Source: a virus
Length of the DNA stretch: 64,000 nucleotides
IMG/VR virus record: IMGVR_UViG_3300029922_000038
Coordinates: 25,353-89,352 of that record
Direction: 5' to 3' (one strand)
The notes below the pieces were generated by a model. It was not told where the DNA came from. It searched no databases and saw only the letters and a program-made list of their open reading frames with translations. The stretch's first letter is position 1, and every line of letters starts with the position of its first letter. A program made the translations under genes and the position numbers. Below, in pieces: positions 972-1,587 of the stretch.

Positions 972-1532
972 ATGAGTTCTCGTAAAATTACTGTGTACTC
1001 TACACAGACTAATAAAAAGAGTGAAGTAAATACAGATGTAGCAACATGGGCAGAACTGCAAGCAGTAATGACAGATGCTGGTATTACCCATGAAGGTCTA
1101 ACTGCAACAGAAAACAGGACAAAAACTAATTTGTCTTTAGGAGCAGCAGTTCTGCCAGAAGGAGAATTTGTTCTATTTCTTTCGCCAAGTACTAAAATTA
1201 AGAGTGGTACTTCTTGGAGAGATATGTCTTATAATGACATCAGGAAACACGCTACTTCAATTGGTGTATCTGGTTTAGGTACAACCGCAGAAATTGGTCA
1301 AAGGATTGAAAACTGGGAGAAAACTAACAAGAATACATCATCTTCAAATGATATTCTTAATACTAAATTTCCTACAGTAGCTGCTAAACTTGATGCTTTT
1401 ATTAAGCATACAGATAAACAATTTGCAGAAGTATCAGAAGCTGTTAATAATAGTGATTATTTTGATAATACTCCTTTTGGAGAAGATGACAATTCTAATC
1501 TTGCAAATGAAGCTGCAAGTCTTGGATTGTAA
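972..1532 (+). CDS. Putative ubiquitin-like (beta-grasp) precursor with C-terminal extension
   Basis: Residues 1-79 show a strand-strand-helix-strand pattern (RKITVYST / SEVNTD / TWAELQAVM / FVLFLSP) ending KIKSG79. A SAP/HeH-like helical segment and an acidic tail follow. Lies directly upstream of the E2-, JAB- and E1-like genes. Confidence 0.65.
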   Translation: MSSRKITVYSTQTNKKSEVNTDVATWAELQAVMTDAGITHEGLTATENRTKTNLSLGAAVLPEGEFVLFLSPSTKIKSGTSWRDMSYNDIRKHATSIGVSGLGTTAEIGQRIENWEKTNKNTSSSNDILNTKFPTVAAKLDAFIKHTDKQFAEVSEAVNNSDYFDNTPFGEDDNSNLANEAASLGL

Positions 1533-1553
1533 TAAGTTTCATATTTTTAATAG

Positions 1554-1587
1554 TAAAATAGGGGTAGAAATGCCCCTATTTTATTTT
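1554..1587 (+). terminator. Intrinsic terminator after the Ubl gene
   Basis: TAAAATAGGGGTA-GAAA-TGCCCCTATTTTA hairpin followed by a T-rich tract. Confidence 0.85.

Follow-up and report, generated by a model that had tools for sequence, protein, structure and literature searches.

A phage ubiquitin-like protein probably made as a capped precursor and separated from its enzyme genes by a conserved putative intra-operon terminator

We analyzed a window of 64,000 nucleotides (nt), positions 25,353 to 89,352 of the 89-kb IMG/VR virus record IMGVR_UViG_3300029922_000038. This work concerns one gene of its + strand (972-1532, from the list of open reading frames (ORFs), stop codon included), which encodes a protein of 186 residues with a putative ubiquitin-like (Ubl) domain, and the genes that follow it, here called X, JAB, E1, and Y. 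The reading that we find most likely, with somewhat better than even confidence, is that the protein is a precursor from which the JAB peptidase cuts everything that follows an internal glycine, Gly79, and that a terminator within the operon sets the Ubl gene apart from the enzyme genes. Four observations underlie this reading: the sequence features of the precursor, their conservation across a large family, the linkage of the gene to those of the enzymes, and the position of a hairpin between them.

The Ubl family and its internal glycine

The Ubl gene starts 6 nt downstream of a primase-like gene, and across loci the gap to the upstream gene is 6-40 nt. It matches the PHROG family phrog_15560, whose function is given as unknown (E 8e-17). 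The phage collection contains no DNA near-identical to the gene. A tblastn search with the protein gave matches in 62 phage records. All are below 60% identity, and those in the 40 of these records that were listed fall within residues 1-93. The records include Flavobacterium phages of the FpV4/Fpv1 group, crAss001-like phages of Bacteroides (Kehishuvirus), and uncultured Crassvirales. The relatives' genes are annotated as hypothetical in these phage records, encode proteins of 201-289 residues, and are located after a primase or a UDG gene. An exhaustive HMMER search brought the family to 1491 representative relatives at E <= 0.001 (546 at 1e-10).

Gly79 (codon 1206-1208) is the last residue of the motif K75-I-K-S-G79 (1194-1208, + strand), a conserved domain tail after which we propose that JAB cuts and that E1 activates the freed end. 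An earlier note on this DNA had placed the glycine inside the protein with about 107 residues behind it, and translation of 972-1532 gives exactly 107. The same note expected homologues to have an invariant KxG followed by a variable tail. This point was set beforehand as a check and was run on an alignment of 156 proteins, made of the best 150 of the HMMER search (window protein included), three relatives from a first search, and three GenBank phage proteins. The expectation was borne out: Gly79 is kept in 154 of the 156 proteins, Lys77 in 152, and Ser78 in 125, which gives the family motif K-x-K-S-G, and the tails after it range from 1 to 210 residues. The near-invariant positions are R4, T11, W26, L29, L54, A59, L61, P62, F66, F69, P72, K77, and G79. 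Apart from K77 and G79, they all lie within residues 1-72.

The region up to the glycine (residues 1-79; 972-1208, + strand) is best described as a ubiquitin-like beta-grasp domain of a new sequence family, on the basis of its conservation and of the neighbours of an ESM Atlas model. This model, which covers residues 1-82, aligns with YukD (TM 0.70), the ubiquitin domain of Midnolin (0.68), and DWNN (0.61), and its named structural neighbours are ubiquitin-like beta-grasp domains only. It gives moderate support to a beta-grasp fold, and predicted fold and genomic context together make a ubiquitin-like domain the clear best reading of these residues. By sequence, the Ubl is a new family. Over residues 1-79, neither the window protein nor 150 relatives matched Pfam, a PHROG with a function, PADLOC, NCBIfam, or a PDB sequence, and searches with Pfam, PADLOC, NCBIfam, and a PDB profile did not place the domain in the ubiquitin, ThiS/MoaD, YukD, Prok_Ub, or BilA families. 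When PDB sequences were compared with a profile of the 150 relatives, only coiled-coil noise was found, in the tail. An assignment to YukD by sequence was considered and rejected, as the Pfam YukD model has no match in the genome.

A hairpin conserved in position ahead of the enzyme genes

Folding and a terminator scan both point to an intrinsic-terminator-like hairpin followed by a T-rich run (1552-1592, + strand) between the Ubl gene and X. With a 15-bp stem and a GAAA loop, this hairpin (1552-1585) begins 19 nt past the Ubl stop codon, and its stem ends 14 nt short of the X start codon. The hairpin folds with an energy of -20 kcal/mol (z = -4.26), which none of 200 shuffles equalled. The earlier note had reported a strong GAAA-loop terminator at 1554-1587; the 15-bp hairpin and the T-run agree with this, but the true position lies two bases off. 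We also ran a strict scan, in which a stem had to be perfect, with 9 or more pairs of which 3 or more are G-C, together with 6 or more T in 10. Within the window's first 14 kb, this hairpin is the sole + strand site that it finds. A comparison with Rfam gave nothing above noise at the hairpin (STnc400 at 26.8 bits, its cut-off being 80).

The hairpin recurs among relatives. Of the first set, 22 loci have a complete gene, 17 of them distinct, and in every one RNAfold predicts a strong hairpin right behind this gene. The strict scan finds a site at most 90 nt after the Ubl gene in 15 of these 17 distinct loci, and it yields a total of 22 + strand sites in the 212,757 nt scanned, 15 of them at this very spot. 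The two loci that it misses are L002, whose hairpin is bulged and has T10 behind it, and L023, whose hairpin lacks a T-run. In the 13 loci with a called X, the stem always ends 14-21 nt before the start of X. Two loci, L025 and L026, have a small acidic ORF after the Ubl gene; there the hairpin and T-run come after this ORF, again right before X, and in L028 and L029 they directly follow the Ubl gene. Overall, a hairpin is found between the Ubl gene and X in 20 of 20 distinct loci. Since the hairpin sequences of the relatives are unrelated, it is the position that is conserved.

We also looked for promoters around the hairpin. TAnnTTTG is the consensus of the -7 box of the Bacteroidota type, and it is absent from the 200 nt upstream of X in all 14 loci searched; upstream of the Ubl gene, one box was found in 14 loci, at -195. 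Given the 6-nt gap after the primase gene and the lack of a visible promoter of the Ubl gene's own, the hairpin would end or attenuate the whole upstream transcription unit. The earlier note had spoken of the Ubl gene's own terminator. The hairpin does separate this gene from the enzymes, but there is no room for an own promoter and the element belongs to the entire upstream unit, hence it is better described as a conserved intra-operon terminator ahead of the enzyme block. From this layout one may reasonably infer that it sets a surplus of the modifier relative to the enzymes.

It is also possible, although we consider it unlikely, that the hairpin is an ordinary terminator at the end of an operon, or a 3' stabilizer of the replication mRNA, that the enzymes are expressed from a phage promoter of their own, and that no ratio is set. 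Little is known about the promoters of crAss-like phages, and the lack of host-type -7 boxes in the 14 loci is therefore compatible with such a promoter; in L025 and L026 the hairpin comes after a different gene. However, the 14-21 nt that separate the end of the stem from X in 13 of 13 loci offer no room for a promoter and a leader, and the hairpin stays just upstream of X despite the inserted small ORF.

Contigs from four RNA libraries labelled as peat metagenomes (four studies) match the phage over window positions 1-8000, mostly at 99% identity or more. The Ubl gene is covered in all four, by assembled contigs in which transcript ends and levels are not readable. The contigs stop at 1381, 1513, 1464, and 1372; none reaches or spans the hairpin and 1603-2670 is uncovered, a pattern from which we draw no conclusion; these are contigs only, and DNA carry-over is possible. 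As a separate observation upstream of the gene, the last codons of the primase gene contain a 9-bp inverted repeat, GTTAGTAGA...TCTACTAAC (926-946, listed on the - strand), 25 nt before the Ubl start.

The downstream enzyme block

The first gene after the hairpin, X (1600-3144, + strand), encodes 514 residues with the invariant segments H278-S279-H280 and F290-C291-x-G293, and we propose it as a candidate E2-like carrier. It has no match in Pfam, nor in the PDB by profile. Ten relatives that are only 17-23% identical keep G262-x-R264, H278-S279-H280, F290-C291-x-G293, and E327-S328..G331-x-P333. The Ser/His pair of X recalls the oxyester E2 site described for Bub (S333/H335, see below) as much as a Cys E2 site.

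The JAB/JAMM peptidase gene is split in the window. Its first exon (2864-3307, + strand) ends in ...HSHHSMA and was delimited by tblastn with the uninterrupted JAB of relatives, its start codon being uncertain; the second (4454-5251, + strand; ORF list and tblastn) starts with TFFSGTD. The intervening sequence (3308-4453, + strand; ORF list, Pfam, and tblastn) includes an ORF for a LAGLIDADG endonuclease (3342-4193). Once 3308-4453 is removed, the JAMM motif E...HxHx7SxxD is regained. The uninterrupted JAB of relatives match Prok-JAB with E 6e-5 and 5e-4, and neither E1 nor the JAB of Kehishuvirus has a PDB sequence match.

Several features of this split were noted in their own right. The 1146-nt sequence interrupts the gene inside the JAMM motif, with the LAGLIDADG ORF in another frame. 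In Fpv1 (L001, 9416-10409) the JAB gene has another interruption, which lies a few codons further upstream and has its endonuclease ORF on the opposite strand; in the near-identical record L014 the JAB gene is uninterrupted. Rfam gave no match to a group I intron in the intervening sequence at E <= 1. At its 3' end, X shares 281 nt (2864-3144) with the longest ORF of JAB exon 1, which is in another frame; the overlap is shorter in relatives. Because similarity to the relatives' JAB begins only near 2990, the start of JAB is probably later than 2864.

The adenylating enzyme E1 (5232-5939, + strand) is a predicted ThiF-type protein of 235 residues (Pfam ThiF, E 1.1e-10), with weak matches to BilD (PADLOC, 3.5e-6) and Cap2-type E1 models. 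Its invariant residues, nucleotide-binding ones among them, are GG-GGIG, D47, D49, R113, D145, R147, and C182. It is followed by Y, of 342 residues. The order X-JAB-E1 is kept in all 18 loci whose sequence continues for 2.9 kb or more beyond the Ubl gene; six further loci end at a contig boundary before 2.9 kb and were left out of this count. Among loci fetched later the block was found in 4 of 4, with only JAB and E1 detected in L028 and L029. The small acidic ORFs between the Ubl gene and the terminator (L025, 5277-5426, 49 residues; L026, 5384-5524, 46 residues), found in the clade of the 77-residue Ubl, are mutually related (39% over 33 residues, E 2e-5). We considered whether they could be a split-off tail module of the Ubl and rejected this: against an HMM built from the final 60 residues of 150 relatives they score no better than their shuffles, of which 68 of 200 and 37 of 200, respectively, do as well.

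These enzymes bear on a second alternative, which accepts that the Ubl is cut and adenylated and holds that it is then a sulfur or acyl carrier of the ThiS, MoaD, CysO, or QbsE type, used to modify small molecules or nucleic acids instead of tagging proteins. The best NCBIfam matches of the E1 are indeed ThiF and MoeB (E 3.6e-9 and below), the enzyme is a minimal adenylation domain of 235 residues that lacks a separate Cys domain, profile and PDB searches did not find an E2 fold for X, and the trimming of carrier Ubls by JAB is discussed by Iyer et al. 2006 (PMC1779556). On the other hand, Pfam found no rhodanese, cysteine desulfurase, or sulfurtransferase among the cassette proteins of the window, Kehishuvirus, and Fpv1, in which X and Y are without an assigned fold. 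The domain ends in K-S-G and not in G-G, the invariant HSH...FCxG of X resembles E2-type sites, by pattern only, and the E1 also resembles, weakly, the models of BilD and of Cap2-type E1 enzymes. Taken with these points, a carrier seems to us improbable.

The part after the glycine

In the tail alignment, residues 80-186 of the window protein (1209-1529, + strand), the putative cap, comprise a linker, a helix-Gly-helix, a variable middle, and an acidic C-terminal motif; the sequence includes MSYNDIRKHATSIGVSGLGTTAEIGQRIENW, then the middle part and the acidic end, ...GEDDNSNLANEAASLGL. Of 158 proteins, 153 could be parsed; in these the part after the glycine is 1 to 210 residues long, with no case of 0. 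The free glycine end is thus never encoded in the parsed members of the family.

Three natural short forms carry a single residue behind the glycine. A protein of 79 residues (P0157/L008), present on 5 contigs, ends in KQTKSG-E, and another of 77 residues (P0158) ends in KVKSG-W. A relative of the latter in L025 (83% identical) ends in KVKSG-F, and a 67%-identical relative in L026 has a Lys/Ala-rich tail of 48 residues instead. Within a single clade (67-83% identity), the part after the glycine is therefore W, F, or a 48-residue tail. The short-form loci L008 and L025 retain X, JAB, and E1 downstream. Since the short forms keep these genes and the tail is swapped within a clade, the beta-grasp with its K-x-K-S-G stands out as the constant unit and the remainder as replaceable. 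We note separately that the L026 tail (gene at 4956-5372) is Lys/Ala/Pro-rich and histone-H1-like, basic where the others are acidic, which may point to DNA binding.

Most long tails have three parts, namely a linker, a helix-Gly-helix, and an acidic end with a Gly-hydrophobic motif. The linker after the glycine has a modal length of 6-7 residues. The family pattern of the helix-Gly-helix is S-[FY]-K-E-L-R ... G ... [ST]-T-x-E-L, represented in the window protein by S86-Y-x-D-I-R ... G101 ... T105-x-E-I. This putative bihelical, SAP/HeH-like motif spans residues 85-115 (1224-1316, + strand), with S86, [FY]87, E/D89, L/I90, R91, G101, T105, and L/I108 conserved. The likeness to SAP or HeH, proposed in the earlier note, is weak at the level of sequence. 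The window protein has no Pfam match to SAP, HeH, or Rho_N, but the helix-Gly-helix pattern itself is conserved in the family and two relatives, P0118 and P0153, have sub-threshold SAP matches at the same position (E 0.018 and 0.015; 15 bits against a cut-off of 23.9). SAP appears at E <= 1 in 4 of 150 family members, and Rho_N in 15% of one related Atlas cluster.

The acidic tail described in the earlier note is there: the last 30 residues of the window protein are acidic and end in ...NEAASLGL. That note overlooked that this end carries a second conserved motif, an acidic helix with a Gly-hydrophobic end (residues 177-186; 1500-1529, + strand), which in the window protein reads ...ASLGL. A G[FYLIMVW] pair occurs within the last 5 residues in 97 of 150 relatives of at least 140 residues, against about 4% expected by chance, and Asp and Glu make up 29% of the last 40 residues of the relatives' tails. 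A stand-alone tail gene was sought with a tail profile in the record that carries the 79-residue form, which is 76% complete, and gave no match; the profile recovers the tails in 3 of 3 records that carry them, all three being members of the model.

The conserved motifs of the tail count in favor of a third alternative, to which we give little credence, namely that the protein is an adaptor that is never cut: the beta-grasp would be the N-terminal domain of a multi-domain protein of the replication module, the glycine a structural hinge, and the tail a binder of DNA or of replisome partners. The Ubl gene directly follows the primase gene with a gap of 6 nt, partner-binding C-termini of SSB-type proteins are likewise acidic and end in aromatic or hydrophobic residues, and YukD, the best structural neighbour, is not known to be conjugated. 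Yet forms of 77-79 residues dispense with the whole tail and still have X, JAB, and E1 behind them, the tail is swapped wholesale within one clade that leaves K-V-K-S-G unchanged, and no protein ends exactly at the glycine, as fits a removable cap.

Proposed mechanism and its significance

A JAB-processed precursor encoded ahead of an intra-operon terminator would work as follows. The precursor would be made from the transcription unit of the primase, with the Ubl gene as its last gene. Most transcripts would end at the hairpin and X, JAB, E1, and Y would be expressed from read-through only, giving more modifier than enzymes. Residues 1-79 would form a beta-grasp with a flexible business end, K-x-K-S-G79, which everything after G79 would block. 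Once the mRNA is spliced, the JAMM peptidase would cut after G79, and the ThiF-type E1 would adenylate the freed carboxylate of the glycine, with subsequent transfer possibly via X. The same cut would free a fragment of 107 residues, made of the helix-Gly-helix and the acidic Gly-hydrophobic peptide, which may act separately, its motifs suggesting that it binds DNA or a partner protein. Conservation, gene linkage, and precedent are what suggest the cut, the adenylation with possible transfer, and the separate action of the tail; the efficiency of termination is presumed.

Some results weigh against this scheme. The glycine is missing in two of the 156 aligned proteins, one of which has Ala and the other is truncated. 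The residues right after G79 are constrained, since P2' is often D and the linker of 6-7 residues is followed by S-[FY]-K-E-L-R, so that the tail could pack on the domain and remain attached. An apparent lack of Pro at P1' (0 of 156 against 3.2 expected, p about 0.04) was discarded, since the count placed K-A-G members in the wrong register. The ESM Atlas model is of middling confidence (mean pLDDT 0.68), TM scores over 80 residues are weak evidence for a predicted fold, and no sequence search ties the domain to a known Ubl family. The Prok-JAB matches in Pfam fall below the curated cut-off. Finally, the terminator does not always stand directly after the Ubl gene, as the acidic ORF precedes it in L025 and L026, and that of L023 has no T-run.

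One may go a step further and envisage a two-in-one precursor, where a single JAB cut would yield equal amounts of a tag and of a peptide that binds DNA or the replisome and places or times tagging at replicating phage DNA, where the leaky terminator would set the ratio of tag to enzymes, and where the outcome would be a dosage-tuned tagging of host or phage proteins. We regard this extension as rather doubtful.

Until now, ubiquitin-like tagging with JAB preprocessing has been elucidated in eukaryotes and archaea and, of late, in anti-phage operons of bacteria (Bil, Bub, CBASS). In the present case it is the virus that encodes such a set of genes, and the family includes cultured phages, namely crAss001-like phages of Bacteroides and the Flavobacterium FpV4 group. 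The design of the precursor makes the cut site predictable, and nature provides versions with a one-residue cap and with a long tail for comparison. If the Ubl does tag proteins, trypsin would leave a Ser-Gly remnant on the target lysines, because Lys77 precedes Ser78-Gly79. The putative terminator ahead of the enzyme block offers a rare case in which very distant phages share the position of a regulatory element and not its sequence. Tagging of host or phage proteins, if true, could bear on phage replication or on the evasion of Bil-type defenses, and crAss-like phages, which are among the most abundant gut viruses, would run a dosage-tuned tagging pathway of their own.

Other observations in the window

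The matching contigs in RNA libraries place this phage, or a strain nearly identical to it, in peat samples, a setting unlike the gut and the fish pathogens of its relatives. One of these contigs (run X2) has 27 other letters in place of the 233 nt between Y and the next gene (6949-7183), which is probably a strain variant of this intergenic region. Further downstream, a long near-palindromic hairpin lies at 7537-7645, with a repeat at 7537-7562; its microRNA-model scores are far below the cut-offs on both strands.

Comparison with known systems

Eukaryotic ubiquitin, whether fused to ribosomal proteins or made as capped polyubiquitin, is never produced with a free glycine, and a dedicated peptidase removes the cap or the partner. 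The phage precursor differs from these fusions in its K-S-G instead of R-G-G, in the JAMM metalloenzyme that takes the place of a cysteine deubiquitinase, and in its unrelated fusion partner.

The closest bacterial parallel is found in type I Bub. In the preprint by Ye et al. 2024 (PMC11601596), the Bub Ubl is made fused to an E2, as BubAB, and the JAB domain of BubCD cuts BubAB right after a conserved glycine, G229. Both systems have a long fusion precursor, a JAB/JAMM enzyme of the same operon that cuts after a single conserved glycine (a cut which for the phage is our prediction), and a minimal E1 in the operon. In Bub, as described there, the C-terminal part that is released is a functional protein in itself, which we count as a likeness to the phage precursor. 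However, the fusion partner is an E2 in Bub and a helix-Gly-helix and acidic module without E2 features in the phage, and the JAB of Bub is fused to its E1 where the phage has two separate genes. Bub is moreover bacterial and thought to be defensive, whereas the present cassette is phage-encoded and part of a replication module. The two have no detectable sequence relation, and Pfam did not find BubE (DUF6527) among the cassette proteins.

Shorter caps are known from type II systems. BilA, as presented by Chambers et al. 2023 (10.1101/2023.09.26.559546), has a glycine that is conserved universally and has up to nine residues without conservation behind it, and BilC, a JAMM peptidase, cleaves after this glycine, exposing it for the E1. 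According to the same work, the BilA of E. aridi has one residue after the glycine, as do the phage forms of 77-79 residues. BilA caps do not exceed nine residues, whereas those of the phages reach 210 and carry conserved motifs, and BilD is a large E1 with IAD, AAD, and CYS domains where the phage enzyme has 235 residues. The window Ubl matches none of the PADLOC models, those of Bil included.

Phages themselves offer a precedent in TAPI, the tail assembly protein I of lambda and T1, a Ubl with a C-terminal domain, for which Iyer, Burroughs, and Aravind 2006 (PMC1779556) predicted cleavage by the JAB of TAPK. Like our protein, TAPI as described there is phage-encoded and consists of a beta-grasp with a conserved terminal glycine followed by a C-terminal domain, with a JAB next door. 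Unlike it, TAPI lies among tail-assembly genes that lack an E1, whereas the present Ubl belongs to the replication genes and is accompanied by an E1 and other conserved partners.

We found no paper that describes a Ubl/E1/JAB cassette in crAss-like phages, in a search that left many subscription papers and supplements outside its reach. The experimental results on Bil and Bub in bacteria and the prediction for TAPI mean that the principle of the precursor is already known. What differs here is that the owner is a phage, that the gene lies among replication genes, that the Ubl with its K-S-G end belongs to a new family, that the tail module is neither an E2 nor a short cap, and that a conserved terminator stands ahead of the enzymes.

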